A DNA stretch of 64,000 nt, from contig QPGO01000123.1 in NCBI GenBank assembly GCA_008632985.1, positions 62,001-126,000 of the forward strand. The letters run 5' to 3'. This document shows, in pieces, positions 275-58,249 of the stretch (position 1 is its first letter; every line of letters begins with the position of its first letter). A program made the translations under genes and the position numbers. Under the pieces are notes generated by a model. It was not told the DNA's origin and ran no database searches. It was given only the letters and a program-made list of their open reading frames with translations. This DNA is from Psammoneis japonica (Eukaryota).

Positions 275-1507
275 TTAACACGCATTGGCCACCGGGACAT
301 TCAACACATCTAAGGATGAGTTGCAGTTTGAAATGTAGTTTGCATCTGGGAATCCGTGTGGGCCACCTTGAAGAGAAGTTTTGTGATGTATCGAAGCCCA
401 AGTGACAGCGTTGTCAGCACCGGATGTAAGAGACGTCCCCACTCGAAATGTCAAACCGTGAGTCCATGCATATTTCAATCGTAAAAGCAACTGCCGACCT
501 TCGTCATTGTTGGGGAGATAGGCTGTACGTACAGTGCCGTTGAATCTATGACCCGGATTCTCGTGATAGGAGCGTTGGTTGCCCGAGGGAATGTCGTACG
601 TGATCTCAATAGCCTTGGTATGCGGAAACCCCGGACAGTCCATACGTGTCATGGTGATGCTCATTTCACCCGAGGGGCTCTTCCCTTGCGGTTCCCCAAT
701 GGGTATGCGGCATGCGGGGCATTTCACGTCGTGATTGAGGTAGTCAAGGATGCATTTCGAGTGAAACGCGTGTGCACAGCCCTGAACATGCACAAACCGC
801 TGCTGAGAGAGAGGTTCCATACAAATGAGACAGTCCCCGGAGGCTCCTGAAGCATTCGATGATGGTGGCCTTAAACATCCCGTCACGGCGGTGCTTGTTG
901 CAAAGGATTCTGGAGCTGAATAATTGATTGTCTCGTTACGAACAGCGTTGGCCGGAACTGGTACCGGCGGTGGTAGTGGCGAGGTCGTGTTGGAGTTCGT
1001 GCCGACTTGAGAATCAGAAGAAGGTGCTTTTAGCACATCCAGCACATTGTTGCAGACTGCAATGTAATTGCTGTCTGGCCATCCACACTGGCCGCCCTCC
1101 AGAGATGTTTTGTGAGGGACTTGGGCCCAGATCAGAACATCTTGCTCTCCCGTTGTCTGAGACGTGCCAATGTCGAAAATGAGGCCCCGAGACCAGGCGT
1201 GCTTGAAGCGATCGAGAAGTTTGCGGCCTTCGCTCGTGTTGGGAAGGTACGCCTTGCGTGTGGATCCAGCGAAGGGGTTCCCAGGATTCTCGTGGTACGC
1301 GTGTTGAATTCCGGATGGAATTTCGTACGTAATCTCGATTGTCTTGGATTTCGGAGTGCTTGGGAAACTTTTTTTCTTGGTCACTCGTACAATCATTGTT
1401 CCCGATGGTGAAAGGCCACTGGTGGAAGAGCCTGCTGCATCAAGACTGGGAGGAGCAAAGTACGGGATCTTCTCCGAGCGATTGGCAAACGAAATGGAAC
1501 GTAGCAT
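275..1507 (-). CDS. Deltex-like E3 ubiquitin ligase, DTC-RING(H2)-DTC architecture
   Basis: ORF 275..1528, first ATG at 1507. RING-H2 CLIC...CAHAFHSKC...CPAC. Two Deltex C-terminal domain copies (SPSGxM, IxYxIPSGxQxxYHENPG, RxAYLP, IGTSxTxG, HKTSLxGG, PDxNY). Confidence 0.9.
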   Translation of the reverse strand: MLRSISFANRSEKIPYFAPPSLDAAGSSTSGLSPSGTMIVRVTKKKSFPSTPKSKTIEITYEIPSGIQHAYHENPGNPFAGSTRKAYLPNTSEGRKLLDRFKHAWSRGLIFDIGTSQTTGEQDVLIWAQVPHKTSLEGGQCGWPDSNYIAVCNNVLDVLKAPSSDSQVGTNSNTTSPLPPPVPVPANAVRNETINYSAPESFATSTAVTGCLRPPSSNASGASGDCLICMEPLSQQRFVHVQGCAHAFHSKCILDYLNHDVKCPACRIPIGEPQGKSPSGEMSITMTRMDCPGFPHTKAIEITYDIPSGNQRSYHENPGHRFNGTVRTAYLPNNDEGRQLLLRLKYAWTHGLTFRVGTSLTSGADNAVTWASIHHKTSLQGGPHGFPDANYISNCNSSLDVLNVPVANAC

Positions 1508-1822
1508 GGTCGTTGTCTGTTCTGACAAAGCCGATTTCAGCCTGGTCTCGCTTCAGAAAATAATGAACGCGAGATTTGCTTTCATATCTTTTTTTGAGTC
1601 GTGCCGACAAAGCTCCGGAAGATATCTTCCAAGAAAATTCTGACACCAGGGCTTAATTGTTGACGATAAATTCTGACAGTCGGTCATACTGTAAGTAATC
1701 ATCACCTCGTGCGTACGCGTCATAGGCAACTCAAAAAGATTTGAGTCGTGCCGGGAAATCGAGCAAAGATTGCAGGAATTCCAGATATCGCCTCATTTCT
1801 TCGTCTCTCTTCCTTTTGAAAG

Positions 1823-4674
1823 ATGCGGCTACCTTCTATTTCCCGTCTACATGGTCTAGCAGTGTTGCTCTGTACAGGCACTTTGGTTCATTCTAGGGTG
1901 CTTCAAGCCGATGAAAGGAGACGAGTCTTCATCCCTGGTCTTTTCGATGCCAAGAACTTTGGCTGGGGCGAGGAGGTGAGTCGAAATTAATGTGTTCTGA
2001 TAATCACGCTTTCCTATCTCGAGCAACGTCTCTCACGCCACAGTCTTTTTCTCTTCTCTATCGAAAGATCTTTAATGTCACAGTTTCTCTCATTAACAAT
2101 CACACGGATGCATGGTATGACGACATCTTTAGCGACGGAACGGAGATTGATTGGATGGTTGCGGACGCTGGATGCGATGCCACGGTTGCCTCGCGGGCAT
2201 ACTGGGATCTGAGGTCTGAAAACAATGGCACCAAACCACACGGAGTGGCAGGCTGTCGTTGCTCCAGTGCCTCCATTGCTGTGGCCATGATTGCCGGATT
2301 GGAGGGTGTTCCTCAAATGTCACCCAGCTCCACATCGGCGAGGCTCAGTGACGTACAAGACTTTCCATTCTTCTCTCGAGTTGTTTCATCCCAAGAGACC
2401 GAAGCGCTGGTATCTATGCTTCGATCCTTTGGATGGGACCGCGTAACAATCCTTGCGACTGACACGCAATACGCAGTTGACCAGATGAACGAGTTTCAGA
2501 GTTTGTGGGTTGGTAAGCACGACGATGAATCCGGTGTTTGGGATGGGGAGATATCGTATTCCCATACAATCGGTCTCCTTACCGATGGCTCCATCGATCC
2601 CGATTCAGTTCAACAAGCACTTGATGGTGTCCCCACGGACGACCCATCCATAAACTCAAGAGCAATCCTTCTCCTAGGCCATGATCAGCACGTGTTTCCT
2701 ATTCTCAAGATTGCTGCCGAATCAAGCTTCCAACCTGACACTATCTGGATTGGCACGCAGTCATGGATCAACCGCTCCCCTCCAGACGGCGACATGTCAT
2801 GGTTTCCCAGGTTTCCGGGCTACATTGGCCTCACTCCCTTTAGGAATCGCAACTCGCACTATCAAGATTATCTTAGCCGCCTCAACGATGTTCGCATCAA
2901 GAATGGAAGGAAGCCCTGGGATGAATTACCAGACTACGCTGCGGAGACCTTGGTTGATTCTATTTTGGCCATGGCCATGGCTCTGTCGAGAGTTCCGCAG
3001 GAAGGTCGTCTAGATGGTCATCTCGTTACAAAGGAGCTTCTTAACCTTTCCTTTAATGGCGTCAGTGGGCCTGTGAGCTTCACCGCCGAGGGAGATCGAC
3101 GCGATCCACGTTTCACGATATTCAATTTGCAACCAAGTGAGTCGAATGACTTGGAGTTCTCGTGGGTCGACGTTGGTATTGCCACAACAAGAGTTGGAGA
3201 GTCAAGTCCCGATAGGGAAAGCATTTGTTTTGCAGTGGCCGGATGCAGTCTTGATGAATTTCCCGACGACTCCTACCCCATCCCAGATGACCCTCCTTCT
3301 CCGTTACTCTATGTGATTATTCCCGTTGCGGTCATTCTTCTCATTGTGTTCGCTTTGTACTGTCGCACAAGAAGGAAGAAAAGGCTTTTGAAGGAGAGTA
3401 TGACAGATTTACAGAAACAGATGGAAAAAATGAATCAAATCGATGGAGAGCTTATTGACATTGACGAACAGGTTGCTGAAGCCAAGAAGCGACAGGCGCT
3501 GCTTATCCTCCAACGTGCAGAGCTTCAGGAAACGCCCGACACATGGTCGGATTCATTGCGCACCGTCGTGGAAGTCCCTCCCGAGGATGAGCAGTATTGG
3601 ACAGTTCTGGATCGCATGAGGAAATCCATGGACAACGTCCATATCTCTAAGCTCTGGCGTATCCAAAACACGTCGCTATGGTCGTACTATTCGTTTCATA
3701 AGGATCGTCTCCTTACTCATGGAACTGATCATGGAGAACGACACGTTTGGCATGGAACGTCCAGTCTAGATCCGTCAGTCATCTATAACGACCAGCAGGA
3801 TGGATTCATGATGCAGTTCGCCGCCGAGGGCTTCTGGGGTCGTGGAATATACTTCGCAGACAAGGCAGATTATTCTTCGCACTATTCTTTCACACCATCA
3901 TCAGGCTCAATTGCTTCATCTTTGTTTTGCTCTAGTTCAAACTCTCGTCCTGCCGGTCGCAAAGACGAGCGCGAGATGTTCTTGGCGAAGCTTCTTGTCG
4001 GGAAAGATGTCCTCTTGGATCGCGACGTTAGTTCAGCAAAAGCTTCCGAATACCGCAAACTCACTGTTCCTCCCACGGACAACAGAACAGGTCTGAAGTA
4101 CAACACGGTCACAGGCCACACAGGTGGCTCCCAGGTTTGGATAGTCTATGGTGCGACCTCGTTGTTCGTGAAACTCTCCCCGAATGAATGTGAATTTCTG
4201 ACTGATTGCATTGCCTTGTCTCATCGCCGCAACACAGAGAATGGAAGAGCCTACCCAGACTATCTCGTAAGGTACTACGTCGGTGATAGAGACCCAAATC
4301 GCTCTCCCTACGAGTCTATGCAAGAAGCATGCAAGAATAAGCAAGTGCCCGAGAGTGCTGTCGATGATCTCAATGCCGCGGAAATGGGCATCAAACGCTT
4401 CACCTCGAGTAGTGCAAGCACCGGTAGCAGCAGCGGAAGCTCTGACTACACATGGGAGTATCTCGACAACTCAGGATGGAAAGCATACTCGGCTTCACAT
4501 CAGTCGATTATTGAGCAGGCGTACCAGGACTTTACTTCGAACAACGACCCATCATGTGTGGTGCAGATTCAAAGTGATTCTTGGATCTATGAGGTTGATT
4601 TGTCACTCCTTCGTCAGACAAATACGGAGCATCCGGGTCATAGGCAACGCGATGTGAGGAGAAGGGTACTTTGA
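1823..4674 (+). CDS. Single-pass receptor: signal peptide, ANF-receptor/Venus-flytrap ectodomain, TM helix, coiled coil, PARP-family ADP-ribosyltransferase, C-terminal WWE domain
   Basis: Predicted exons 1823-1975, 2068-4150, 4238-4674 (GT-AG introns 1976-2067 and 4151-4237; the second restores QVWIVY-ENGRAYP). VFT motifs VAGCRCSSAS, VPQMSPSSTSARLS, FPFFSRV, FGWDRV, FNGVSGPVSF. TM LLYVIIPVAVILLIVFALYC. PARP motifs RIQN, WHGTS, GRGIYFA, AYPDY. WWE WEYLDNSGWKAY...IEQAY...YEVDL...RDVRR. Confidence 0.88.
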
Positions 4675-15221: not shown

Positions 15222-18200
15222 TCAAAAATATTCAGCATAGGACGTTCGAGCGCCAATCAGACGGTAGAACAGCCCGTCACGAGTCCAACTCAACGATGTA
15301 CAAGGATGCTTTGAATTACAGGCTGACTTAGGTCGCTTCGTCTCGCACATTTTGCATTTCCGAGCACTCTTGGAGTTCATGAACGTACATGCTTCGCAAG
15401 CCCATTTTGAAGATTTCGGTGGAGGTTTGGGGATTCTTCGGAGCCCGACGATTCGCTCAAGGTAGATGTGGACTGCGGCGAAGGACCAGCTGACACTTCA
15501 GATTCGGATTCTGGAGAACTCATGTCTGCCGTATGGGACGTATCACTCAGGACTTCGGGCTTCATTTCAACGTCGTCACTTTCTTCGAGGACGGGTTCCT
15601 CGTCCTCTTCAAGTGGTACAGTTCCGCCACATTGCGCGTTGGCTACTTTCAAGAGAGATGCATAAGTGGGCTCAAGTCCCGACGGCCACCCTCCAAACTC
15701 CTCGTCTTGGCAGCTGAGGCAACACTTCCATTCTTCGCCCTTGTTTGATTTCCACAAGCAGCAGGCTCGCCAAGAGCAGCTTTCGTGGAGCAAGACGACG
15801 AGGGCTCTGACAATATCTCTTTTTCGGATAGTACGCGACTAAGAGTCCATTCCTCGTCATCCGATGAATCCTCGCCATCGACGGACATCTCGTCGGAAGC
15901 TTGCTTGGCTGGGTCGGTAGCACCCTCGTCTTCTGATGACTTTTCTGAAGCTGTGGCGTCGGGGTCATTGCCTGGGCTCTCGACCTTGTCGTCGTTGGCT
16001 GGTTTCACATCCTCCTCGGCGTTTGGCTTGCTGTCCACTTGTTCATCCGCCACTTGATTGGCGGCGTTTGCTTCCTCCATTTCTTGGAGGCATTGTAGCT
16101 CCAACATTGCTTCTTTCTCTTCTTCCTCCTGTCGATACAAGGAAAGGAAAGCACAAGGTCAGCATATACCGCAACACAATCACATAGGGAGGTACGAGCT
16201 TGACAGACAAATCTTACCTGTTTCCTCTGTTGGATGAGACTCCACTGATACAGGATTGCATGAAAACTTCGGTGAGAAAACGCACGAACGTCAATATCAC
16301 GAGAACACCGTATTGATAACACTTACAGTCACTTCCAATCCGAAAACAAAGGATACCGTATCGTAACCCTTCATGGCCGCCCGAAAGACGGGATCATCCA
16401 CCGTATCGGTGGAATGGTGGTGGCTCCAGTGCCTCATGTTTTCTTCGTCGGGCATTCCGATTTGTTCCTGAAAATCTTCACCGCGTTCCGTCGATGCCGC
16501 CGCACAGCTCAACTCCACGTCGGTATTGTCGGTGCTGGGTGAGTCATCCATTGTGTCTGAATCAGCCTTCATAGTCATGAGCTTTGGAGCAAGATCGAGC
16601 CACTGTTCCTCCCACCAGCTCTGTAGTCGACGAGCATCGTCTGCAATCTCTTGTCCCGGGGACCAAACCTTGACAACATTGGCAAAGATGCGGTTCACGT
16701 CCTTGGAAAACTCCGACACGCTCTTGTATGCCCCGTTTTGATCTGCGGCAATCTCGATCCTCTTGCGGATCGCTCCCAAGTCGATTGGCTGACGAACAAG
16801 TTTCTCATAGTCTGCAATCGAGACACCGTATTCATCCGACTTGATTGGAGCGAGGAACTTGGCGGCGTCCTCGTGTTCAAACATTTGAGCTAACAGTGCC
16901 TTGCAAGCTTCCAATTGCTTTGGGAGATTCTTGGCTGCTTCCATTTCGGCGTGGTCCGCAATGATCTTGCACCGTTCGCAGCGAAGCTTGTCGTGCGTGT
17001 CTGGCAACAAGTGAAAGTGAACAAATGTGAGTATACACAAATCAAGTCAGTTTCTTCTAAGGCACAAGCTCGTTCTGCAAACTCACCAGACGGAGTTCCC
17101 TGTCTCATTTTGAAGAGATTACGCAAGTCCTTTGTACTAAGGGCATTCACTTGCTCCTTGTCATCCACGACGGACTGAAGACCCTCCTTGGACAGTTGGC
17201 GTTGAAAAATCTTTTCCAACAATTGAAAAAGGCGGATTGTGAGTATACAGGTAATAGGTAGTCAAGAAGACACAACCCCCATCCATCTCACCTTTTCTTC
17301 AACCGTCCCGGTGGCCAGAAAGCGATAGGTAAAGCAGCGCTTCTTTTGCCCGTCACGCCAGCAACGAGCAGCAGCCTGTTTATCGACGGCGGGGTTCCAA
17401 TCTAAATGGTATTCTTTGAGAAATGTTTCAAGTCACACGATTAACAAAAAAGAACATTCATTGCGCTTACCTGGATCAAAGAGAACCAGACGATTGCCTC
17501 CAATCAAGTTCAGGCCACTGCAGTAGAGGATGACAAATGAAGGAGAAAAAGAGTGAGACTTGATATCATCGACAGGAACAAGATTCAAAACAAATACAAT
17601 GTAGTTTAATACACACCATCCTCCGGCTTTGCTGGAAAGCAAAAAAGCAATGAGACTGCTGGAGGGATCGTTGAACTCGTCCACCATTTTCTGTCGCTTC
17701 TTCATGGTGATACTCCCATCGAGCCGACAAAAGCCCCAGCTATTCTCACGACACATGCGTCCAATGAGATCCAACGTCTGAGTATAGTTGGAGACGATTA
17801 CAATCTTGTCGGCGCCATTGCCCGGCTTGCGCATTTCCTTCATGAGTCGGTACAACACAAACATCTTGCCGCTCCACTCGGGACGGACCGGAGCATTCGA
17901 GTCGCCGCGGCGACCGCCTCCTCCGCCAGCTTCGTAGGGCAAAAACTTGGACAATCCCTCGGCACCAGGAGCGGCCGCTGTTTCTTGTTCCGAGTACTTG
18001 ATCTTTTTCGAAGCCGCCTTTCGTCCACTCCCCACTCCACTCGAATGATCCTCGGTCACGAGACGTGGATGGTTGCACAGCTTCATGAGCATTTGAATGG
18101 ACCCCAAACAGTTCTCTTGCTTGCCAGAAATGGCATGCTGTAAATGCTTGCTGTCTACCAAATGCTTGTACATGTTGGCTTGCATGGGAGTCGGTTTGCA

Positions 18201-19792
18201 GCACACCACCTGTACCAACTTTGGTGGCAGGTGCTGCGCATTGAGGGTATTGACACGACGCAAAATAAATTCATTCACGGTAAGACTCATGTCGTTTTGG
18301 ATTTCCATCATTCTGCGCTTTTGCGAATCCGTCGCGTCCGGTTCACGTCCACGGAGAATGGGAAAAAGAATGCGTTTGCGGAATTCCTCTTGAGTCCCCA
18401 TGACGCCAGGATTGGTAAAGTCCACCATGGCAAAGAATTCTTGCAAATCATTCTGCATGGGCGTGCCGGTGAGCAAGACGCGGCGCTTGACGGGGAGTGA
18501 CGCGAGTGCCCTGGAGGTTTGGTTCTCGCTATTCTTGAGACGGTGTGCTTCGTCACACACCAACAAGTCGCAACAGTCCTTACTCTTGGTGAGCCGGCCC
18601 ACATGTGTGCGAATGCATTCATAGCTGGCAATGAGAACATTAAACATTTTGGTTCGTACAAACAAATCGATATTCTTCTCCACCGTTTTCCGGTCCGCTT
18701 CGGCGAGCGCTAGAGTCTTGACCGTACCAGCACCAAGCCACTTGATGAATTCATTGTCCCAATTCTTGACGAGCGAACAGGGACAAACCACAATGACGCG
18801 TCTGGCGGTGGGCTCGCGATTGGCGGTAATGCCAGTTTTCAAAAGAGTGTAAATCAGCGTTACCGCCTGGATCGTCTTGCCGAGGCCCATATCATCGGCA
18901 AGGATACATCCGTTTCCTTTGAAACTCTTGGACTTCAAGCCCATGACACAGGCATACATGAATTCCACACCTTCCCGTTGATGTGGACGAAGCCACTTTG
19001 CGAGAACCGGCGGAACAAAAACATTTTCCTTGGCATACGCCGAGTCGGGGGCTGTTTTAGAAGTAGAAATAGCAATACGCATTGTTAGATTAAAAAGGCA
19101 GGGTTTTGCTTTACATGAATAGGCGCGGAACTGATTCCTACCTGGTCGCAGAACCGTCACAGACTCTTCCACGCCATACTCGTCGGGTTGCATTTCCGTC
19201 ACACTGTAATTACAACAAATAGGATAATAGAGCGTTAGAAAACTGGCATGATTCACATACTACAACAAAGCGATAGCATAGCAAGTACTTACAAGGTTGG
19301 TGGAAGCCCCAGCGCTTCTCCACCCTGATGAGGCGACGTCCAGACGCAGAGCGGTTCAAAGGGCTTTTCATTTTCATTTTCATCGTCGTCTTCTTGTTCA
19401 CTATCCGAACCACTCTCGTCATCCTTCGAACGAGCTGCTGTGCTTGGCAACTTGTACGCGAGTCCCCGTCCGGCCCGTGCCATGAGTTTCACCATGCCGT
19501 CCATGCGTCGGCGTTGTCCCAGAGACGATTGACGCAACGCCGCATCGGCGCTCTTGTTGTAGGCACGCCGCTTGGTCATGGGGCGTTGAAATTTCTTTTG
19601 TAGCGAAACCGAAAGGCCAACCATGACGGGAGCGCGTTGAACGAGAATGCGTTGGCCCGGTTGAAAGAGCTTGTTGGAGGAATGACATGATGATGTGTTG
19701 CTGCATGTTGTTGTCTTGATTGTAGTTGTTGCATTGACACGACGGCCGTCGGCACCAAACGAACCACGCGATCGCTTACGACCCGCCAACAT
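15222..19792 (-). CDS. RAD54: Rad54-like SNF2 ATPase with C-terminal bromodomain, Cys-rich module and RanBP2-type zinc finger (multi-exon)
   Basis: [84 protein letters not shown]. Bromodomain in 16297..17040. [10 protein letters not shown]...CKMC near 15330-15410. The 3' end is uncertain because of indels near 15785 and 15430. Confidence 0.85.
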
Positions 19793-23200: not shown

Positions 23201-23552
23201 TGCTCACAGAAACGTCAAAAAGAGGGTGCAGAGTCGAATCGTCGAGTGCTCTGTCTGGGATGGAAGTGGGTCACGGCACTCGCGATGTAAAACGCCGTTA
23301 TCTGAACGGATAAAATTATTCGTATTCGAGGATAATTTATTTCGCGCCGGGCCCTTGTTCAGTTACTCGTCACAACATACAGTATAGTAACACACGCAAC
23401 AAAAAACAAACGAACAACGTGATGTGGAAGGGCAAGTGGCAAGTGGCAAGCTGGGCAAACTCATTATTTGCAATCATTGCTCTTCTCTCAGTGTGAAGGA
23501 GTTTGCTTTCTTTTTGCGCACGTAAATCGAAAAATATCCTCATTTAGTCGTG

Positions 23553-25442
23553 ATGTGGTCTTTTAGAATAAGAGGTTTGGCCAAGAAAGCGCTCGCAGCT
23601 TCGACAGCAGGTCCGATTGGCGCTTCTGTGTTTTATAGCGGTTACGTTTATGCAACAACGCCAGAGGACCAAATTAGTGTTTCTCATACCGCGTATAGCA
23701 TTTATGTGCAGAGTCTGGTAAACTTGATAATGTCAAAACTTGGAGAACGTTCTCTCAAGAATCTTGACAAAAATTGCGAAAGCGCAGTCTCAGAGAATGA
23801 ATCCTTCCTGTTAGAACTGTTGGAAAGAAACAAGAATACTCAGTACGGAAAAGATCACGATTTCGATCAAATCAAGTCAAGAGAGGATTTTCAGAAAAGG
23901 CATCCAATCACGAATCATGAGTATTACTCCCCATACATCCACAGAGTTGTGGAAGGCGGCAACAATGTCATGTTTCCAGAGACACCCAGAATGATTGGAG
24001 AAACTTCTGGGACATCAGGGACTCGAAAGCTACTTCCGATAAACCCACTGCAACGACGCGTGTTTTTCTCCGAGGGGATTGGAATCACCTTTGGTGTCCT
24101 TGAAAACGGGATTCGAGAAAGAACAAAAGGAAGAATATCGTGGCCAAACCTTCAAAAGTCTTGCAAGCTCATGTTTACGCCAAGATATAGCTACGCAAAG
24201 TGCGGCCTGAGAATCGGACCTAATTCGTCTGCTCCGGGTGATAATAAAACTTTGCTTCAGCTATACACGACACCCCCGGATGCTTGGGAGGTGCAGGATC
24301 AGAACGCCATGCTGTTTCTGCATTGTCTTTATGCGTTGCTCGACAAAAACATGGGATTCATTGAATCGAACTTTGCTTCGGGCGTCTTTAACTTTTTCGT
24401 TTGTATAATGGACAACTGGGATGATCTCATGGCCACAATCGAGACTGGAACTTTACCACAGCATCTCAACATTGATGCCTCTGTAAGGCAAAATTTGGAA
24501 CGAGGCCTTCAGCGCAACCCGGATCGAGCAAGTGAGTTGAAGATAATACGGCAGGAAAAGGATGGAGCTTCACTCGCACGACGCATTTGGCCCAGCCTGC
24601 ATACGATTTTAGCAGCCGACACTGGATCGTTCCATATCTACGGAGAAAAGCTGAGAAAAGAATTTATTGGAGACGATGTAGCAATTTATGCTGCGCTATA
24701 CGCAGCTACTGAAGGATTGATTGGCGTCAATCCAGTCATAGAGGAGAAAACTTATGTCCTACAACCTCGCGCCATGTTTTTTGAATTCTTGCCCATTGGT
24801 AGCAACGTTCGAGATACAACACCACTTTTGTTCCTGGAGCAGCTGGAGGTTGGAAAAGACTATGAAGTGATAATCACCAATCTCACCGGCTTGTACAGGT
24901 ATCGATTTGGCGACGTTGTCCGTTGTGTGGGGTACAAAGGCGAAGCTCCTATAGTACAAGTTGCCTATCGAAAAGGTCAATTTCTGAACGCAATGGGAGA
25001 GCAAACATCAGAAGAAGACTTTTACAGAGCTCTCTCCACAGCTTGCACCCTCGACTGGAACATGGAGCTTGGGGAGTACTCGGCTGTCGAGTACTTTGCT
25101 CGAACCGTGGGTGAGCGAAAGCCCCGATACACGGTGTTTGTCGAACTCAAAGGAAAAGAAGCGAACAAAGAACGCCTTCCAAAGGCCATGACAAGGCGAG
25201 AAATGAAGGCGTTTGATCTCAGACTCTCTCAAGTAAACGAAATGTACGCTCTTTTCAGATCAACCGGGCGGCTTCATCAGGCAGAGGTGATATCTGTGCT
25301 CCCTGGCACTTTTGAGAAAGTTCGAAAAGCAATGATAGAAACGGGTGTAAGTCCAAGCCAGCTCAAAGTACCGAGAGTATTGCGGAATGAACGGTTGATC
25401 AGTATTCTCGAACAGAACTCTGTTACAAAATATCAGCACTGA
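23553..25442 (+). CDS. GH3-family acyl-acid amido synthetase (GH3/GHDC-like)
   Basis: ETSGTSGTRK, YAATEGLIGVN, FFEFLP, GLYRYRFGDVV, QLKVPRVL; intronless, 629 aa. Confidence 0.9.
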   Translation: MWSFRIRGLAKKALAASTAGPIGASVFYSGYVYATTPEDQISVSHTAYSIYVQSLVNLIMSKLGERSLKNLDKNCESAVSENESFLLELLERNKNTQYGKDHDFDQIKSREDFQKRHPITNHEYYSPYIHRVVEGGNNVMFPETPRMIGETSGTSGTRKLLPINPLQRRVFFSEGIGITFGVLENGIRERTKGRISWPNLQKSCKLMFTPRYSYAKCGLRIGPNSSAPGDNKTLLQLYTTPPDAWEVQDQNAMLFLHCLYALLDKNMGFIESNFASGVFNFFVCIMDNWDDLMATIETGTLPQHLNIDASVRQNLERGLQRNPDRASELKIIRQEKDGASLARRIWPSLHTILAADTGSFHIYGEKLRKEFIGDDVAIYAALYAATEGLIGVNPVIEEKTYVLQPRAMFFEFLPIGSNVRDTTPLLFLEQLEVGKDYEVIITNLTGLYRYRFGDVVRCVGYKGEAPIVQVAYRKGQFLNAMGEQTSEEDFYRALSTACTLDWNMELGEYSAVEYFARTVGERKPRYTVFVELKGKEANKERLPKAMTRREMKAFDLRLSQVNEMYALFRSTGRLHQAEVISVLPGTFEKVRKAMIETGVSPSQLKVPRVLRNERLISILEQNSVTKYQH

Positions 25443-47070: not shown

Positions 47071-47923
47071 ATGACAAACAATGACATGAGAGTCGACACG
47101 GAAGATGGCACAAAGAATGGTGCGCCTCCCCATTGGGAGGACAAGGAGCTTTGTCTTGATCAAGCCCCTGAATTGCCTTGACCACCGAAGCGATTCTTTG
47201 TGCCATCGTGGATGGCTGGACACTGCAAGATGTTCAATTTATTCAAATGATTCCTGGAGGTAACTTGCCCCACTTGCAAGAAAACCTTGATCGGTTCCGA
47301 ACGTCTTCCTTTTTCAGTTTCACAAAGAGCGCCTTTCACAAAACAGAGGAGCGAGAAGCCCTTGCTGACTGCACGCCAATGTCCATGTCGGCCGTGCCTC
47401 GATTGCTTCAAGAAGGAAAGCTCTCTGTTGATGTTGCCATCATCAAGGTGACTAAACTGCACAAGGGATTCTGCAGTTTGGGATTTGGAGTTGAGTGCAC
47501 ACATGATTTTATCAAATGCGCCAAAATTGCCGTGGCAGAAGTGACGACTCACATGCCATGGACCGAGGCGCATTCCAAGATCCATGTCAGCGAAATTGAT
47601 TGGTGGGTCATGGAGGACTCGCCTCTGAAAACTGTGCAAGAGCTCTGGCCAGACTGCATGCAGTCTGTTCCTTGTTCACAGGAGGTGCTGGCTGGCATTG
47701 GAAAGAACCTTGTGAAAGAGATTTCCAACGGCACCACACTCAAATTTGGTTTAGGACCAGTTCCACTTTCTGTGACCCGTTTCTTGCATCAGCGAAAGAA
47801 CATTGGCCTTCACACGGATGTGCTGGTGGAGGAACTCTTTCGCTTGCAGCTTGATGGTGTCATTGCCAACACAGCAAAGGCAGTTGATGCTGGCAGAACT
47901 GTCGTGGCACAAGCTTGCGGGAG
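47071..47923 (+). pseudogene. Truncated, hypermutated duplicate of the acetyl-CoA hydrolase/transferase gene
   Basis: Aligns to 53739-54631 with a ~37-nt deletion; every aligned Tyr codon has become Cys or His; truncated where DIRS copy B begins. Confidence 0.95.
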
Positions 47924-47949
47924 AGTCAAGAGTTGTGTGCATTTTTTTT

Positions 47950-50900
47950 TCAACAATCATTGGGTCGAGTCAGGTGCCAAATGACTGTCTCGCCATCTGT
48001 CAATTGTCAGGCATGGTGCTCTTCGCACCGCAACCAAGCAATGTCACAGCAATCAGAGCAGGCAGATGGAGACGACACTCCAAGGGCACACTCACCTGAT
48101 CTTTGGAAGCAAATCCTCTGGCTGGTCCTCGGATTTGCGGCAAACCAAACCTTTTTTGTGTCCCATGAATGCAAGGGTCACCCCCCCAAGCACTTGTGAC
48201 CAGACTTGGGGTTGATCCCAGACAACAACCAACATGACTGAGGGAGCAAGCACTTGAGCCAATTGGGCCAAAGTGCAGCTGAGAGTTTCACAGCTCGCCA
48301 CATTTGGCAGATGCACACAAGTCACAGCACTGGGGGTGGGCGGGCAAAAATTCAACCCCGCCCTCTGCAGGGTCTCGCCAGTGCTGCAAACAGCAGATCG
48401 GCGGGACTCAAAGAAGAAACCCTGGATCTGCCCTGCCAGGGGGGTGTTCCGAGCATGGGTTGCTTGGCAACAAAGCAATGCCATGATGTTGCGTGTGGTG
48501 GAAACTCATTGTCAAAAACAGAACACCATGTTGAGATGACAGGACAGCTGGTCCCCTCAATCCCTGGGCCCCAAAATCCAGTGGGAGCCACCCCAGTCCT
48601 TGATCCAAGAAGACAGCAACCCAGGAGACCTCTCAAAGGTTTCTAACAAGTGAAAATCAACAAATGGCATTGCACACTTCCCCTCTGTGACTCCTTTGGC
48701 AAGTGCCTCCTGCAAGATGCCATTGGTGCCTTGAGCCAGGAGCGTGCAAGTGCCCACACCAAGGACCAAGCTGAGTCTGAAGCCACCCGTGGATCAAGCG
48801 GAGTGGACACGGGTGACCTGCTCCAACAGCTCAGGGCTCACAAAGGTCTGTTTGTAAAAAGCTGTTTCCAACACCAAGTTGTCAGTGACAAAGAAGAGCT
48901 CTGCTCCTGTGAGATCTCCAGCTCCTCACTGTGCTCTTCTGGCATGCTTCCACTGTGTTGGTGATGCCCCCCCCAGCTGGGAAGAACTCTGACTCATCAT
49001 CCTTCACCTTCACCCAGATCCCAACTCAGTGCAACACCAAGCCATCAGGTTTCTGAACCAAGGATCCAAGTCCTTTCCCAGTGCATCACCAAATCTGGGC
49101 AGAACAACACAATTTTGTGCTCACACACTGTTGCGCATGCTGGTGTGTGGGGGGCAAACATCCAGTCCATGGCCTGCAGATCTCCCAGGAACTGGAGAAC
49201 TGCTTGGACCAAGGAGGGAGCTTGAAGGTCCCTTGAGATCACTCTGCAAGTCCTCTTGTCTGTCTCATGCCTGAGCCAACAACCAAATTCCTTGCCTGAA
49301 ATTGCCCATCCATCTGTCCAGCAATTTAGGTGCCATGAGTCCAAGGCAAGGTGCTGTCCCTTGTGGAAGGGATTTAGAAAGTTGCAGGTCATTGCCATCT
49401 GCCCCTCTTCCTCTCCAAGTCCTCTCACAATCAAAGGTTTGCAACTCCATTCCTTGCTCGTGTGCTTCCTTGCACACCAACAGTGGCAGACTCCTGACAA
49501 TCAACTTTTGGCCTTGTCCCACTTTGCAGCAGTCACAGTGACTGTCAAGTCCATGCCATTCAGCACCCCAAAGATGACCCAAGCCCAAGCACCAACTTGA
49601 TCCCCAGATGTTGGCATGAACTTGCACAAAGCATTTGGAATGCCCAAGCACTGAAGGTGCAAAGCCATTTGCCATTTGCCTTGTGACCCACCAAGCATTT
49701 TCTTTGCTGAATCCTGTGCCCTTTGAGTCATTCACAAATGTCCCAAGGTCTCCCGCAACAGCCTGGCTGACAGTGCTCACTCCCCTTCATTGCCCTGGGG
49801 AGCCATGGTTTGCAGGCAGGGTCTCGCAGCAAATTGAAGATCATCAAGATGAAACCCGTTGGATTGTCTGGGAGCACAGGATTTCCTCTGCAAATCTCCT
49901 TGGTCCAACAAAGCATCCTTGCAGCATCACATGGGCTTGGTTTCATGTGCCCATGAACAGGCAAACCCATCATTTGCAGCAGACTGCAGACCATGCATGC
50001 TTCTTGGACTCCCAGGAGGTGCTTGAGAACAGGCAACAAGTCAATGCCTGTGTGTGGTCCAATCTTCAGGAGTGGTCATGCACCACAGGACTGACTTTGG
50101 AGTTGGGAGAAAGAAGCCTGGGGCCCACAAGGCACAATTGAACCCCCCCCCCCAAGGATGCACTGTTGCAGACCATCCCAACAATGGCATGATCCAAATG
50201 GACAGCAGGAGAAACCACATTGAACCCAATGACAAACAAGATTGGCTGCATTGATGTGGTGCCACCAACCCAAGTGTGTGACAAGGACACTGTGTCAGCA
50301 CACCAACCAATCCCTGCCACCAACTTCTGGGCCCAAATCTCATGGCTGCCATGGGACGAGTTGCACATTCTGCCCAGCGGGCCAATTGCAGGAACCCCTC
50401 ATTGACGCACAGAGGTGCTGCATGTCAACATGCTGGAGTTTGCAGCCATTGTCATCAACACCCATGTGGCCCTCATTTTCCACCAGTGGCATGGCTGGAC
50501 AACACCAGCACCATCTCTTGGCTGCAACACATGAGCTGCCATTTGCATTGTCCTGTTTTGCATGTCTGGCTTGCTTCCTTCTCTTTGCTGCTGAATGTTC
50601 AACCTGGGCCTCTGCCATTGATCAATGCTCCCAACTTGCAACAGTGCAAGTGCACCAAGTCCCACTTCCAAGCTTGAATTGATGACTTCATTGCTCACTG
50701 GACAGGGTGTGACCATGGGTGTGTGAGGTGTGCAAATGACTCATCTTTGGAATCTTGTGCCTTGCACTTTGCTCATGGTGCTGGCTTGAGCAGCATGGCT
50801 TCAACAACATCAGCCTTGCAAAGCCAACTTTGGCACAGACTTTTCTTCCCATGCTGGGCTGCCACATGTTGGGCCTGGCAGAAGGTGACTCTCTGTGCAG

Positions 50901-52300: not shown

Positions 52301-53738
52301 TTGATGCTCATCTGTGATGCACTCTAACAGAGCAAGCCTTGATCAGAGCTCTGCTCAACACCTGGTCTGTGGCAGCAAGAGTTGAAGACAGGACATTTGT
52401 TTGCTTGACAGGGCATCTCCAGTGTGCCAGAATGGTCCATTGCTTGACAACATGACTGTCTCTCATCTGTTCCAACCAGTGCCTGGAGAGGCCCCTCTGC
52501 TGGCACATGTGAGGTGGTGGTCTTCAACTTTGCACCACTCTCCTTTCTTGGCCCAGATCTGCCAGCAAACATGCCCTTTGCTTGGTGACACAGTGGCTCT
52601 TTGCAGCCACTTTGCAGCTTCCCACTGGCCTCTTCTTTCACTGTTGCCATTTGTCACTTCATCCTTGCCCCCTTTCTCTCTTGTTGTGGGGCATCTTGCA
52701 ACCCTCTCCAAGGTGACAACTCTCTCTGCCTGGTGCTCCAATTCTGGGTTCTCCTGGACTTGACATCTCTGGCTCAAGGTCTGTCATTGCTTCTGCCTTG
52801 TGCTGCAACCAACCAGATGGCTTGTCCAAGAGTGCATCAGACACAGGAGGATGGCAGAGTTGAGAGCGACAGATGGCAACCGACCTGTTGAATGTTCGGC
52901 ACAAATCGGGTGCCAATGAGAGACAGTGGTCTCTGTGCCTCTCCCCATGCAAATTGGGGGTTGACTTTCAGGATCTGCTTTTACATCACTCACTCAATGC
53001 AGAAGCAGTGCACAGGCCTGTGAGCACCACACAAGTCACAGCAGCAAGCTCGCCCCCATTTCTTGCCAAGTCTGGCGCTGTGTGTTTTTGTTGAGTTTCA
53101 AGAGAGAGAGCCTCACTTGCAGCCAACGCCACCCCCATTTTGTGGCTCTCCAATCAGAGCTCCAATTCTGGGTTCCCTCAAATTTGGTGTCTCTGGCTCA
53201 AGGTTTGGTGCCCATGGCTTGCGCCACAATCAAAGAGCTTGTCCAACAAGAGGCACATCATCAGACACCAGAGGACAGCAGGGTCAAGAGCACCAGAGAG
53301 GGCAATCGACCCATTGATTGATGAGAGCAGCAGATGGCATTGACAACCATGACAGAGACAACAAGTGAAATTGCCATGTCAATTGAAATTGAACACAAAG
53401 CGTGTGGTGAACCATGGGAAGATACCGGCAGGACGAAGCACAATTGCAATTGCCTTCAGGCATTTGTCCAAAGGTCGGAAAGTGTGAATCCCTTCAGTGA
53501 CACTGACGGACCTGTGACAATGGAGCGGCTGACGGACCCCCACAACGTAAAACATATATAATGTCAATACGCAACCGCAACAGTGCAGTGAGCATCGGAT
53601 GTTGAAGCCGAAATGCAGTCTCGTATGTTCCTCTTTTACTTGCACAAGACTATTCTGCGGTGCCACAGCATTCTAGACATGCCTCTTTGGATTGAGCTCA
53701 CGAGGCAAGACGAAACGAACTGAAAAATTGAGTAAAGC

Positions 53739-55692
53739 ATGACAAATAATAACATGAGAGTCGACACGGAAGATGGCATGAAGGATGGTGCGCCTGCTCC
53801 CAGTTGGGAGGACAAGGAGCTTCGTCTCGATCAAGCCCCTGAATTGATAAAGAATGGTAATCACATCTACATTGGCAGCACCGCCTCGACCGCCGAAGCG
53901 ATTCTTCGAGCCATCGTGGATAGCTGGACGCTGCAAGATATTCAAATTATTCAAATGATTCCTGGAGGTAACTTGCCCCACTTGCAAGAAAACCTTGATC
54001 GGTTCCGAACGTCTTCCTTTTTCAGTTTCACAAAGAGCGCCTTTTATAAAACAGAGGAGCGGGAAGCACTCGCTGACTACACGCCAATTTCAATATCGGC
54101 CGTGCCTCGATTGCTTCAAGAAGGAAAGCTCTCTGTCGATGTTGCCATCATCAAGGTGACTAAACCGCACAAGGGATTTTGCAGTTTGGGATTTGGAGTT
54201 GAGTGCACACGCGATTTTATCAAATACGCCAAAATTGTCGTGGCAGAAGTGACGACTCACATGCCATGGACCGAGGGGCATTCCAAGATCCATGTTAGCG
54301 AAATTGATTGGTGGGTCATGGAGGACTCGCCTCTGAAAACTGCGCAAGAGCTCTGGCCAGACTATATACAGTCTGTGCCTTATTCACAGGAGGTGCTGGA
54401 TGGCATCGGAAAGAACCTTGTGAAAGAGATTTCCGACGGCGCCACACTCAAATTTGGTTTAGGACCAGTTCCACTTTCTGTGACCCGTTTCTTGCATCAG
54501 CGAAAGAACATTGGCCTTCATACGGATGTGCTGGTAGAGGAACTCTTTCGCTTGCAGCTTGATGGCGTCATAACTAACACAGCAAAGGCAGTTGATACTG
54601 GTAGAACTGTCGTGGCACAAGCTTACGGGAGTCGCGAGTTATATGAATTTCTCGACCGCAATCCAGCTATTGAGTTCCAGCCGAGCAGCTACGTGAATGA
54701 CTACCGAATCATGGGACAAATCGAAAATCTTGTCGCGATTGTGGACGCTCTTAAAGTTGACTTGACAGGTCAGGTGGCTACAGACTCGATTGCGCACAAC
54801 TTTTACGGCAGTGTTTGGAGTGTCGATGACTCCATTCGTGGTGCTCGATTCTCACGTGGCGGGAAGCCGATTGTTGCGTTGCCCTCTAAGAGTTTACGTG
54901 GGCGCTCCAACATTGTGCTTGCATTGCCACCAGGTACAGGAGTCTCCATTACTCGATCAGATGTGGAGTACGTTGTGACTGAGTACGGAACTGCTTATCT
55001 TTATGGTAAACCGATTCGAGAGCGCTGCTTGGCACTGATCGACATTGCTCATCCGGACTTTCGAGATGAACTTCTTATGGAAGCCAAGCGCCGCCACTTT
55101 GTTTCAGAGTCCCAACCCGGGTATTCCTTTAGTAGTACGTATCCAAAAGAGATCGAGTGTACACACACAACTCGGAATTTCAAGACTGTCTTTGTGCGAC
55201 CAATCAAGGCGGTTGATGAGGACATGCTTCGAAGCTTCTTTCACAAGTTGTCTGATCATTCTGTCTATCTGCGTTACTTTCGCAAAATGCCTTCCTTGCC
55301 CCAACGGATTCTACAAAAGTTTGCCGATGTTGACTATTCAAGCGACATGGCTTTAATTGCACTTCACCCCCACGATTCACCAACCCCGATCTCGTTGGAA
55401 TCGCTCAGTGGATTTCCGATCCGCACGACGGAATTCCAGAAGTTGCGTTTCAGGTGCGAGACGATTGGCAAGGACAAGGATTGGGCTTGTTTCTTTTCTC
55501 TATTTGGTAGAAGTATCCAAATTCTTCGGTGGTGTCACTCATTTCAAAGCTGATGTGCTAGTTGACAACAAAGCCATGCGAAGTGTGTTTGAGAAGTCTG
55601 GCATTGAATACACTAGCCGTACCGAGTTTGGTGTATGTATCTATGTGTTCACCATCCCCAAGCGAAAAACGGATCTTCTTGCTATAAAGTAG
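53739..55692 (+). CDS. Acetyl-CoA hydrolase/CoA-transferase fused to a C-terminal GNAT acetyltransferase
   Basis: IYIGSTAS, DVAIIKVTKP..GFCSLG, DGATLKFGLG, IGLHTD, VDLTGQV, SRGGKPIVALPS, VVTEYG, IAHPDFRDEL, then RPIK..DE..L..FF..LS..SVYLRYF and EVAFQVRDDWQGQG. One apparent indel near 55390. Confidence 0.9.
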
Positions 55693-56397: not shown

Positions 56398-58173
56398 TTA
56401 AGCAAATAGACTCTTGATGACTGCCTGTACACTCAGCTTCTTCAAGTGATTGTACTTTTGTCCCGTCCCAACAAACACAACGGGAGCACCCGTGACATGC
56501 GTCATGGTCAATGCGGCTCCGACCTTGTCACTAACTGTATCAAACTTGGTCAGTACAATGCCATCAATTTGTCTGGAATGACCGCCCGATCTCAGCGCTT
56601 TGTTAAACATGGAAAGCTGGTCCATTCCATCGTTGCCCACGAGTGCCTCGCACACAAACAGGACCAGATCCGGTTGGTTCTCCACCACAAGCTTGGACAA
56701 GGCCTTCATGAGAGGCACGTTATTTTGCATACGCCCGGCCGTGTCCACCAAGACAACATCGTGCTTTTCTTCAGCAGCATGGGCAATAGCCGCCTTGGCC
56801 ACGGCGGCAGGGTCCTTGGCATATCCCTTGTGATAGAGAGGCACATCAAGACACTTGGCATGGACATTGAGCTGTTCGACCGCACCACTCCGAAAGGTAT
56901 CACAAGCCGCCAGCATGGGAGAGCATCCGTTGGATTTCAGGTAGTAGGCAATCTTCGCCAAGGACGTGCTCTTGCCGACTCCATTGATACCCACCATGAC
57001 AATCACATAGGGCTTACCGCCACCGCCGCCGCCAAAGAAACCACTCCCATCTCGCTTGGTTACAACCGAACGAAGCAAATCCACTTCTCGACCCTTGGTG
57101 GGTTTGAGAATCTTGGCAATGGCCACCTCCAACGCTTGTCGCACCGCCGTCTTGACGCGATGAAAGGACTGCATCTTTTTCCCCACCAGCTTGACTCGGA
57201 CTCCGTCACAAATTTCCTTGGCGATTTCACTCGCTACATTTTTCGACGTGAGCATGCGTTGCATATCCGCGAGTGGTGCCTCCAAGTCGGCTTGTGTCAG
57301 AACCTTGTTTCCCGACATTTGATCCATGAGTCCCTTGAGCGATGCTCCCCATCCAGCACTCGTCGTTGCATCATCATCATTATCGTCCAATTCTTCTTCT
57401 TGTTCCCACGCGGGTACTTCGTCCGAATCTGGTAAATAGGCGGCTCGGGCTTCTGCCAAGGCACGTGCATCGTCCACTTCAATCCCGCTCGCCACAACCT
57501 CCTTGGACCGATCCAGATTGGCCATGGCTTCCTTTGTTACCTTGGCATTTCCATCATGCCATACCGTCTTTTCCTTGCCCTTTTTTGGCTTGTTCTTTTT
57601 ACCCTCATCGACTGCTGCAGCAGCACGGTTTGTCGATTCCGTCATGATGACCGGTTCCTCGTTGTTGCTGCTGCTAGTACTGCTGGTTTGTTTCAACAAG
57701 ACGGAAAAGGTCGAATCAAACAGAGTGCTATCCAACACGGGTTGTTGCTCGTTCGATTGTGATGATTCAAACAAATCATATTCCTTGAGGGAAGACTGCA
57801 GCAAGTGTCGAATCCACACTACAGACTTGCGTCCCCGCAACACCACTTCGGGATACACTGCAATAGACAATTTGTCCATTGCGTCTTCCCATTCCACAAC
57901 GACTCCTCCATCCAGGGTGGTTCGTTTGGTTGTAATAGATTGAGTAGCATCCAATAGGGTCGAAGAGATGAATTTGTTAATCACTAAAGTCGTCTCTTGC
58001 AACAAACCATGGGAGGGGTCCTTGTATTGGTAGAGAACGAGACCGCCTGCAATTTTCAGACGAGAGCGAGTGTGAGTCAGAAAGAGGAATTGGCAACAGA
58101 ATACGTTAGATTTTCGACCTGGAAAAGTTATCTATTCCGTACCTTTTGAGATTATAGTTAGAGATTCAATCAT
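56398..58173 (-). CDS. SRPRA: Signal recognition particle receptor alpha subunit
   Basis: Exon 1 58173-58143 (MIESLTIISKG), GT-AG intron 58142-58047, exon 2 58046-56398. GINGVGKSTSLAK, ACDTFRSGAVEQL, DTAGRMQ, TKFD, FVGTGQ. Confidence 0.95.
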
Positions 58174-58249
58174 CCTTACAGTGTTGATCTTCGCTTCAGC
58201 GGCCCTCTTTACTTTATTACAGTAACTATGGAAGCTTGTGTGTACAGTA

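Follow-up and report, generated by a model that had tools for sequence, protein, structure and literature searches.

A Deltex-type ubiquitin ligase gene and a receptor-PARP gene of the diatom Psammoneis japonica probably form a functional writer/E3 module, convergent with the vertebrate PARP9-DTX3L pair. We place at roughly 55% the probability of a conserved divergent module in which a type-I receptor-PARP and a dedicated Deltex E3 share one promoter. Both genes lie at the start of the window, the 64,000-nucleotide stretch analyzed here (contig QPGO01000123.1, positions 62,001 to 126,000, forward strand). A functional pair is favored because linkage is kept among relatives (by a contig-size proxy), the gene trees are congruent, and intergenic motifs are repeated or conserved. 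These data stand alongside the domain architectures and residue conservation described below.

We know of no receptor that has ADP-ribosylation as its direct output. To our knowledge, the biochemistry of ADP-ribosylation-dependent ubiquitylation by Deltex proteins is recent, and nearly all of it comes from animals. The literature searched yielded no account of receptor-PARPs in diatoms or of a connection between them and Deltex, and the accessible text of surveys from 2010 and 2014 reports Phaeodactylum tricornutum and Thalassiosira pseudonana as without PARPs. Our data suggest a receptor-to-ADP-ribose-to-ubiquitin signaling route, undescribed so far. If true, this would be a complete pathway from the cell surface to ADP-ribose to ubiquitin that arose independently of the vertebrate unit, and an independent, convergent case of writer-E3 gene coupling. 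It would also provide a natural case of subfunctionalized DTC domains in tandem, of which one is catalytic and the other degenerate, and a tractable system for studying how abundant phytoplankton perceive cues from outside.

The two genes are arranged head-to-head. The original prediction had placed their start codons at 1507 (minus strand) and 1823 (plus strand), 315 bp apart, and the open reading frames agree. The window is gene-dense, with the next gene beginning 728 bp past the receptor gene. A divergent pair with a 315-bp gap is in itself ordinary, and not beyond chance in a compact genome. What is beyond chance is the conserved linkage (by proxy) together with the intergenic motifs. Searching the window by tblastn for paralogues of either protein returned the two genes themselves and nothing else, and no further ADP-ribose gene (macro, PARG, or ARH) was found among the 46 other ORFs.

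The Deltex gene encodes a RING finger between two unequal DTC domains.

275..1507, minus strand: Deltex gene (protein P0001), intronless, 410 aa, stop codon at 275-277, DTC-RING-DTC Deltex-type E3
1019..1411, minus strand: DTC1, aa ~33-163, degenerate
707..835, minus strand: RING finger, aa 225-267 (zf-RING_2, 3.5e-10)
308..688, minus strand: DTC2, aa 274-400, ADP-ribose pocket complete

As had been claimed, two DTC domains flank the RING and a WWE is absent; Pfam assigns two stretches to DTC (E 4.7e-81; the best covers aa 274-400) and gives no WWE. The RING is directly followed by a DTC, and the protein aligns to the DTX1, DTX2, and DTX3L structures. The ADP-ribose pocket of DTX2 comprises R535, S567/S568, W578, H582, and H594 (PMC7442474). 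In the alignment, DTC2 has the pocket residues R327, S359, W370, H374, and H384 at the positions of R535, S567, W578, H582, and H594, with L360 as a main-chain contact at the S567/S568 pair. DTC1 retains R84, S116, and W127 only, with Pro131 at the His582 position and Cys141 at the His594 position. It lacks two of the pocket residues that were mutated, in combination with S568A, when ADP-ribose binding by DTX2 was abolished (PMC7442474).

The catalytic His is kept in DTC2 (H374) and not in DTC1. Among 168 Deltex homologues scanned, double-DTC proteins usually carry the HH motif in just one of their DTCs, the one directly after a RING. In the DTC2 pocket, and at the Cys/His positions of the RING, the residues are invariant. 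The His582-Glu608 pair of Deltex proteins is catalytic for ubiquitylating ADP-ribose at its 3' hydroxyl (PMC7615817). Since the Glu608 position is Ser398 in DTC2, by both HMMER and MAFFT alignments, formation of ester-linked ubiquitin-ADP-ribose by this protein is not assured. Ser is found at this position throughout the clade, and an invariant Asp400 lies two residues further on. A hidden upstream RING exon was considered and rejected: the ORF is closed at 1552, there are 315 bp of room, and the closest homologues have no such exon.

The neighboring gene encodes a signal peptide and a Venus-flytrap domain (VFT), then a single transmembrane helix and a helical segment, and last a PARP domain followed by a WWE.

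1823..4674, plus strand: receptor-PARP gene, two introns, spliced CDS of 2673 nt, 890 aa, no internal stop
1823..1975, plus strand: exon 1, aa 1-51
1823-1894, plus strand: signal peptide, within exon 1
1976..2067, plus strand: intron 1, 92 nt, GTGAGT...AG
2068..4150, plus strand: exon 2 of the spliced model
2128..3135, plus strand: Venus-flytrap/ANF_receptor ligand-binding domain, extracellular (Pfam 3.6e-42)
3304..3363, plus strand: transmembrane helix, aa 464-483, followed by RTRRKKR; the sole hydrophobic segment above threshold
3391..3528, plus strand: juxtamembrane charged helical segment, aa 493-538, a putative coiled coil judged by eye
3607..4278, plus strand: PARP catalytic domain, split by intron 2 (Pfam 6.5e-11)
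3748-3759, plus strand: PARP triad His, in WHGT
3838-3858, plus strand: PARP triad Tyr, in GRGIYFA
4151..4237, plus strand: intron 2, 87 nt, in frame, no stop
4238..4674, plus strand: exon 3, stop codon at 4672-4674
4447..4662, plus strand: C-terminal WWE domain (Pfam 6.3e-14)

The raw ORF reads through intron 2 because this intron is in frame and has no stop. A homologue (P0250) matches the spliced protein at both exon junctions, and in another relative (P0122) the introns are read through at both sites. The WWE domain expected on the neighbor of Deltex is recovered by Pfam, with ANF_receptor and PARP alongside. The sequences nearest to the ligand-binding domain are those of mGluR6/8/7/4. A protein atlas search returned generic ANF_receptor clusters at 0.80 and nothing else.

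The PARP domain aligns over its full length to PARP15 and has the NAD+-binding His and Tyr of the PARP/ARTD H-Y-[EDQ] clade. Its third triad residue is a Val (in QVWIVY), which aligns with the Leu of the mono-ART PARP15; the acidic Glu of poly-ADP-ribose-forming PARPs is absent. Within the receptor family, the His and Tyr are strictly conserved and the third residue is V or I. Because the triad is H-Y-V without Glu, and loss of the catalytic Glu in PARPs goes with MARylation (PMC9027952), the enzyme is predicted to be a mono-ADP-ribosyltransferase.

The region between the genes contains repeated and conserved motifs.

1508..1822, no strand: divergent intergenic region, 315 bp, presumed shared promoter
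1593..1606, plus strand: copy 1 of TTTGAGTCGTGCCG, a direct repeat of 14 nt, exact, 86-99 bp upstream of the Deltex ATG
1740..1753, plus strand: copy 2 of the repeat, TTTGAGTCGTGCCG, exact, 70-83 bp upstream of the receptor ATG
1633..1652, minus strand: conserved block GCCCT[G/C]GTGTCAGAATTTTC, common to the Deltex upstream region of the metagenomic contig L001, 14 nt exact

A metagenome scan for relatives' DNA yielded L001 (1638 bp) and L002, an unrelated RING match; two genome-contig scans and one viral-contig scan yielded nothing. Neither the 14-nt repeat nor the 14-nt block in common with L001 was reached in any of 1000 shuffles. Furthermore, AAATTCTGACA, which lies inside the 1633..1652 block, recurs at 1668-1678.

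Linkage of the two genes appears to be conserved among relatives. As a proxy for co-location, we took Deltex-bearing and receptor-bearing contigs of identical size; the proxy uses the longest contig per protein and covers 15 of the 30 receptor-cluster members. Comparing 135 Deltex with 121 receptor contigs gave nine exact size matches, eight of them above 5 kb, where ~0.07 would be expected by chance. Relatives in the window's Deltex clade have 12 contigs above 5 kb, of which 8 are identical in size to a contig carrying an orthologous receptor and four have no match; outside this clade, none of 34 such contigs matches a receptor contig. By this measure, the pair has been kept together in about five further lineages. 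Two matched contigs (5486 bp and 8657 bp) leave no room for an intervening gene. A 4176-bp match was dismissed as chance: short contigs are expected to give ~1.4 chance matches, and a contig of this size could not hold two 685-aa ORFs.

The gene trees are congruent. The receptor gene falls in a clade marked 99* with 9 rows, 8 of them linked. The Deltex gene falls in a clade marked 96*, also of 9 rows, 6 linked and 3 on contigs of at most 2.2 kb; all members of its sister clade of 4 are linked, and the topology matches that of the receptor tree. A lack of conserved linkage had been named beforehand as what would count against the pair, and linkage is kept by proxy. The Deltex-receptor link is confined to one orthogroup. 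In the lists, the receptor paralogues of Fragilaria crotonensis have no common contig size or neighboring locus tags with Deltex, and the same holds for the Conticribra weissflogii homologues of both proteins. A 48-aa "transposase" in the Deltex cluster (P0231) was considered as a sign of diatom DNA in a bacterial assembly and set aside, its sequence being unrelated.

It is possible, though we think it unlikely, that the two genes are intact but functionally unrelated, placed head-to-head by the compactness of the genome, their 4.4-kb block simply not yet broken in close relatives. Divergent orientation is expected for about one-quarter of neighboring gene pairs, and gaps of a few hundred base pairs are normal here. 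The linked relatives all belong to a single clade (50-68% protein identity), and more distant family members lack the link. However, in both trees the link extends over two sister subclades, with no exception seen on long contigs, and the intergenic motifs recur close to each ATG and are conserved in L001, neither of which favors neutral synteny. PARP plus DTC also has a specific biochemical logic, and a natural RING-DTC-TAZ-PARP fusion exists (P0314), with a RING-DTC 48% identical to that of the window's protein.

We consider it improbable that the genes are co-regulated in one program (e.g., life-cycle or sexual) and act separately, the E3 not working on the receptor's ADP-ribose marks. In such a case, the receptor WWE would read its own modification, while Deltex would target other ADP-ribosylated proteins or nucleic acids, the latter being among the reported substrates of DTX enzymes. 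Deltex members are upregulated in sexual reproduction of four diatoms, in a paper whose main text does not mention PARP (PMC12618581), and numerous Deltex and receptor paralogues of diatoms are not linked. Yet nothing in the accessible text of that paper ties the upregulation to particular paralogues, and the congruent co-inheritance of the two genes argues for a closer tie. Far less probable still is that one partner is catalytically dead, serving as scaffold or reader. The absence of an acidic third triad residue in the PARP and of the Glu608 equivalent in Deltex would fit this, as would the plant WWE-PARP RCD1, which appears to be without ADP-ribosyltransferase activity (PMC4245714). But the His and Tyr retained throughout the receptor family are also those of active mono-ARTs, and the invariant DTC2 pocket and RING residues likewise speak for a working ligase.

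In the conserved module that we prefer, the receptor would be a type-I membrane protein with the Venus-flytrap domain outside and PARP plus WWE in the cytosol, resembling a receptor guanylyl cyclase with a mono-ADP-ribosyltransferase in place of the cyclase. The ligand is probably small and amino-acid-like. The Deltex protein would be the dedicated E3 of the receptor, its RING-DTC2 binding ADP-ribose on the receptor tail or on receptor substrates and ubiquitylating them. DTC1, which has lost the catalytic His and its own RING, would be a non-catalytic accessory or reader domain. The 315-bp promoter, with its motifs, would drive both genes. We infer these enzyme activities, the ligand, co-expression, and E3 action on the receptor's own ADP-ribose marks from sequence. 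In its fullest form, a ligand-gated transmembrane ADP-ribosyltransferase hard-wired to a co-transcribed Deltex E3, independent of vertebrate PARP9-DTX3L, the proposal is tentative, and we would not bet on it; in that form, given the Deltex rise in diatom sexual reproduction, the cue may be amino-acid-like or a pheromone. The domains and the proxy linkage fit the writer/reader module originally proposed. A simple copy of the mammalian model is weakened, because one DTC only has the His and the full pocket and Glu608 is replaced by Ser. For an innate-immunity-like role, we found nothing in support.

The vertebrate PARP9-DTX3L pair, reportedly the subject of work by Juszczynski in 2006, likewise sets a gene of the PARP family head-to-head with a RING-DTC Deltex gene across a short intergenic region. 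PARP9 carries macrodomains and lacks a membrane part; the diatom protein is a receptor with VFT, transmembrane helix, and WWE, and no macrodomain by Pfam. DTX3L combines a single DTC with RRM and KH-like domains, in contrast to DTC-RING-DTC. A stable heterodimer and interferon or immune induction are features of the PARP9-DTX3L type of module; the diatom pair is known here from its sequence. The vertebrate locus is head-to-head, with a short shared intergenic region and synteny across species (bioRxiv 10.64898/2026.04.23.720386), an arrangement also found here, with 315 bp in the window and synteny in relatives by proxy. The same preprint dates the origin of the vertebrate locus to after lungfish diversification, and the diatom pair would therefore be independent of it.

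Other known systems share parts of the pair. RING-DTC2 aligns to DTX1 (7.5e-36) and DTX2 (3.8e-35), with the pocket and His582 kept. DTX1, DTX2, and DTX4, E3s that act on ADP-ribosylated substrates, are, however, WWE-WWE-RING-DTC proteins, while the diatom E3 has no WWE, the WWE being on the neighboring PARP, and carries a degenerate DTC before the RING and Ser in place of Glu608. Among solved structures, the PARP domain best matches clade 3 mono-ARTs, PARP15 (4.7e-16), PARP14 (2e-14), and PARP12 (3e-13). Like the WWE-bearing members of this clade (PARP7/11/12/13/14), it has a hydrophobic third triad residue and a WWE in the same polypeptide. In human WWE-bearing PARPs, the WWE is N-terminal to the PARP domain; here it is C-terminal, and, unlike clade 3 mono-ARTs, the enzyme forms the cytosolic tail of a receptor that crosses the membrane once.

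Class C GPCRs (VFT plus 7TM) have the VFT in common with the diatom receptor, in which Pfam finds no 7tm_3 and there is one hydrophobic segment. Receptor guanylyl cyclases and natriuretic peptide receptors share an ANF_receptor/VFT, one transmembrane helix, a helical segment, and a cytosolic enzyme. They differ in that the diatom output is PARP plus WWE without a kinase-homology domain, and its VFT is closer to those of mGluRs. The closest solved WWE, by a weak alignment (E 0.033), is that of RNF146, a WWE-RING E3 that reads PAR. Of the iso-ADPr contacts of RNF146, the equivalent of Tyr107 is kept and those of R110 and W114 are Asn and Lys; in the diatom, it is the writer, not the E3, that carries the WWE.

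The Deltex-type E3 gene and its divergent neighbor, a receptor-PARP gene, form a real pair that appears conserved in relatives, joining a predicted receptor-type mono-ADP-ribosyltransferase to a predicted ADP-ribose-directed E3. The window DNA is eukaryotic, and all named organisms among the informative protein matches are diatoms (Fragilaria, Attheya, Cylindrotheca, Amphora, Conticribra, Helicotheca, Chaetoceros, and Thalassiosira). The window's own proteins are absent from the searched databases, where top identities are 65–68%. We refer to the two genes as gene A and gene B, and to proteins, including the gene A product P0001 and its homologues, by P-numbers.

275–1507, minus strand: gene A (P0001), intronless, 410 aa
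1823–1975, plus strand: gene B exon 1
1976–2067, plus strand: gene B intron 1, GTGAGT...AG
2068–4150, plus strand: gene B exon 2
4151–4237, plus strand: gene B intron 2, 87 nt, in frame
4238–4674, plus strand: gene B exon 3

The original prediction described two head-to-head genes, a DTC-RING-DTC protein without WWE and a neighbor that carries one; both descriptions hold. The start codons of gene A (minus strand) and gene B (plus strand, ATG at 1823) are separated by 315 bp. In P0001, two DTC stretches flank a single RING at aa 225–267 (Pfam DTC, E 4.7e-81) and a Pfam search detects no WWE domain, while the same database places a WWE in gene B. Spliced gene B encodes 890 aa with no internal stops. 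The junction sequences of the spliced homologue P0250 are identical to those of gene B, and in the relative P0122 introns are read through at both gene B intron sites.

The adjacency of the two genes is by itself no more than chance. Genes are closely packed here: the 64-kb window has 58 stop-to-stop ORFs of ≥150 aa, and divergent orientation is expected for about a quarter of adjacent gene pairs. Downstream of gene B, a mitochondrial carrier gene starts after 728 bp. The window holds no paralogues of P0001 or of the gene B protein, and no macrodomain, PARG, or ARH was found among 46 further window ORFs.

The linkage appears conserved among the nearest relatives of both genes. Co-location in relatives was judged from the database-given lengths of the contigs that carry each protein. 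Between 135 Deltex and 121 receptor contigs there are nine exact size matches (4176, 5486, 8657, 12879, 15401, 15695, 18567, 18568, and 424786 bp). Judged by near-misses (up to 50 bp apart), chance alone should give about 1.4 matches in total and about 0.07 at lengths above 5 kb, where eight of the nine lie; we take the 4176-bp match as one of the chance matches rather than true linkage. The matched pairs, which are the nearest relatives of both window genes, are P0009 with P0122 at 424786 bp (ENA), P0006 with P0150, P0003 with P0261, the P0005 cluster with the P0149 cluster (three contigs), P0213 with P0163, and P0267 with P0242; the contigs of 5486, 8657, 12879, 15401, 15695, and 18568 bp are from JGI/NCBI. 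The 5486- and 8657-bp contigs have no space for an intervening gene once a Deltex gene of 1.2 kb and a receptor gene of ≥1.8 kb are placed on them. By this proxy and by the agreement of the gene trees, the loss of linkage that the original prediction had tied to chance adjacency is not what we find.

Matching is concentrated in the window's Deltex clade. Taking the longest contig per protein, and with 15 of 30 members representing the receptor cluster, at least 8 of 12 contigs above 5 kb in this clade match a receptor contig (unmatched sizes: 16305, 31526, 12065, and 14756 bp); none of the 21 rows at ≤5 kb does, although these rows are uninformative. Outside the clade, 0/34 contigs above 5 kb and 1/70 short contigs (4176 bp) match, a difference with Fisher p ~2e-6 across rows that are non-independent. 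A metagenome scan for relatives' DNA yielded no relative's locus beyond L001, a 1638-bp contig with a relative's Deltex gene, and the other collections scanned yielded nothing.

Two cases count against linkage as a general rule across diatoms. Fragilaria crotonensis has five receptors, all placed in other clades than the window's receptor, with contig sizes that match no listed Deltex. In Conticribra weissflogii, the Deltex and receptor homologues have locus tags far apart and lie on different contigs. The F. crotonensis receptor-PARP genes MHU86_11628 and MHU86_11629 are in tandem.

The two gene trees are concordant. In the receptor tree (93 rows, quick method), the window's protein falls in a 9-row clade (support 99) of which eight rows are linked, and a second linked clade (P0163 and P0242) lies nearby. 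In the Deltex tree (53 rows), P0001 is in a 9-row clade (96) with six linked rows and three on contigs of ≤2.2 kb, while all four rows of the sister clade are linked. Topologies also match, for instance P0006 + (P0005, P0226) against P0150 + (P0250, P0149). From proxy linkage and concordant trees, the two genes seem to have been passed down together from the common ancestor of the linked lineages.

Gene B encodes a predicted receptor with the domain order signal peptide, ANF_receptor/Venus-flytrap (Pfam E 3.6e-42), a single transmembrane helix (aa 464–483, with RTRRKKR next to it on the C-terminal side), a helical stretch rich in charged residues, PARP (6.5e-11), and a C-terminal WWE (6.3e-14). 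The flytrap domain is nearest to the ligand-binding domains of mGluR6/8/7/4 (E ~1e-17), and the PARP domain to PARP15, PARP14, and PARP12. The receptor family keeps the PARP His (WHGT) and Tyr (GRGIYFA) with V/I as third residue; the gene B Val aligns with Leu of PARP15. In the available text of PMC9027952, a missing acidic residue is the classical mono-ART mark. The WWE bears a weak likeness to that of RNF146, retaining the Tyr107 equivalent but not those of R110 and W114.

The two DTC domains of P0001 differ in what they retain. We aligned P0001 to solved DTX1, DTX2, and DTX3L (E 7.5e-36 to 3.5e-28), with pocket and catalytic reference residues from the accessible parts of PMC7442474 and PMC7615817. 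The domain after the RING retains R327, S359, W370, H374 (His582), and H384 (His594); the catalytic Glu608 position is Ser398, with an invariant Asp400 two residues on in the alignment. Ubiquitylation of an ADP-ribose hydroxyl by P0001 is therefore not to be assumed; ADP-ribose-guided recruitment can be. The domain before the RING retains R84, S116, and W127, all invariant across 29 sequences, with Pro131 and Cys141 at the His582 and His594 positions.

P0001 has the look of a RING-DTC unit duplicated in tandem, in which the first RING has gone and the first DTC no longer carries the catalytic His. Some of its relatives are RING-DTC-RING-DTC. Sorted by regular expression, the 168 homologues scanned comprise 66 RING-DTC (R-D), 44 D-R-D, 14 R-D-R-D, and 12 R-D-D architectures, plus smaller classes. 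Where two DTCs are present, usually only one retains the HH motif, namely the DTC directly behind a RING (exceptions include P0002, P0008, and P0010). The diatom Deltex family is large and varied (P0001–P0121 and P0295–P0341), and Chaetoceros tenuissimus has a tandem cluster on one contig (CTEN210_06426–06429 and 06437). P0231, a 48-aa bacterial "transposase, partial" listed in P0005's 90% cluster, is unrelated in sequence; its listing is probably a clustering-table artefact.

The spacer between the genes contains candidate shared cis-elements, among them the motifs GTGTCAGAATTTTC and TGAGTCGTGCC. A 14-nt exact direct repeat, TTTGAGTCGTGCCG, occurs at 1593 and 1740, its copies 86–99 bp from the gene A ATG and 70–83 bp from the gene B ATG, and AAATTCTGACA occurs at 1635 and 1668; neither has a further exact copy in the 64-kb window. 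The L001 Deltex protein is 65% identical to the window's, and its upstream DNA (148 bp compared) has in common with the window a GCCCT[G/C]GTGTCAGAATTTTC block and a CACG[A/T]CTCAAAAA stretch. Neither the 14-nt cross-species exact match nor the 14-nt internal repeat arose in 1000 shuffles.

Whether conserved pairing reflects a shared function is a separate matter. Genes A and B most likely form one signaling module, at a probability of roughly 0.55. The main rival, neutral synteny, has the two genes staying together without acting together; it is a less likely though serious reading, consistent with an adjacency that in itself does not exceed chance. P0314, a natural writer–E3 fusion (RING-DTC-TAZ-PARP, where TAZ is a zinc finger; 875 aa, single ORF on a 2911-bp Logan contig), lends the module reading independent support. 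P0314 shares 48% identity with P0001 over the RING-DTC, and its PARP has only a distant likeness to that of gene B.

Our literature searches turned up no account of receptor-PARPs in diatoms or of receptor-PARP/Deltex pairing. Citarelli 2010 and Perina 2014, in their available text, describe the two model diatoms, Phaeodactylum tricornutum and Thalassiosira pseudonana, as without PARPs and T. oceanica as having at least two. The accessible part of PMC12618581 reports Deltex family members upregulated in sexual reproduction in four diatoms. A 2026 preprint, in its available portion, dates the DTX3L–PARP9 locus to after lungfish diversification; the diatom pair is therefore convergent.

Several other features lie in the window. 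A strongly purine-rich (plus strand) stretch of ~3.8 kb at 58100–61900 (GC skew ≤0.35, AT skew 0.33) carries a low-complexity ORF chain on the minus strand, with no Pfam matches and no tandem repeats. At 16297–19259 (minus strand), a bromodomain ORF adjoins a SNF2-family helicase ORF on the same strand; the two may be exons of a single chromatin-remodeller gene. Two acetyl-CoA hydrolase/transferase-domain ORFs lie 6 kb apart at 47172–47984 and 53736–55553 (both plus strand), and the first covers no more than part of the N-terminal domain and thus could be either a fragment or a diverged duplicate. A 638-aa ORF at 23526–25442 (plus strand) has all three domains of GH3, a plant-hormone-conjugating family (acyl-acid amido synthetase type, E 8.3e-64).
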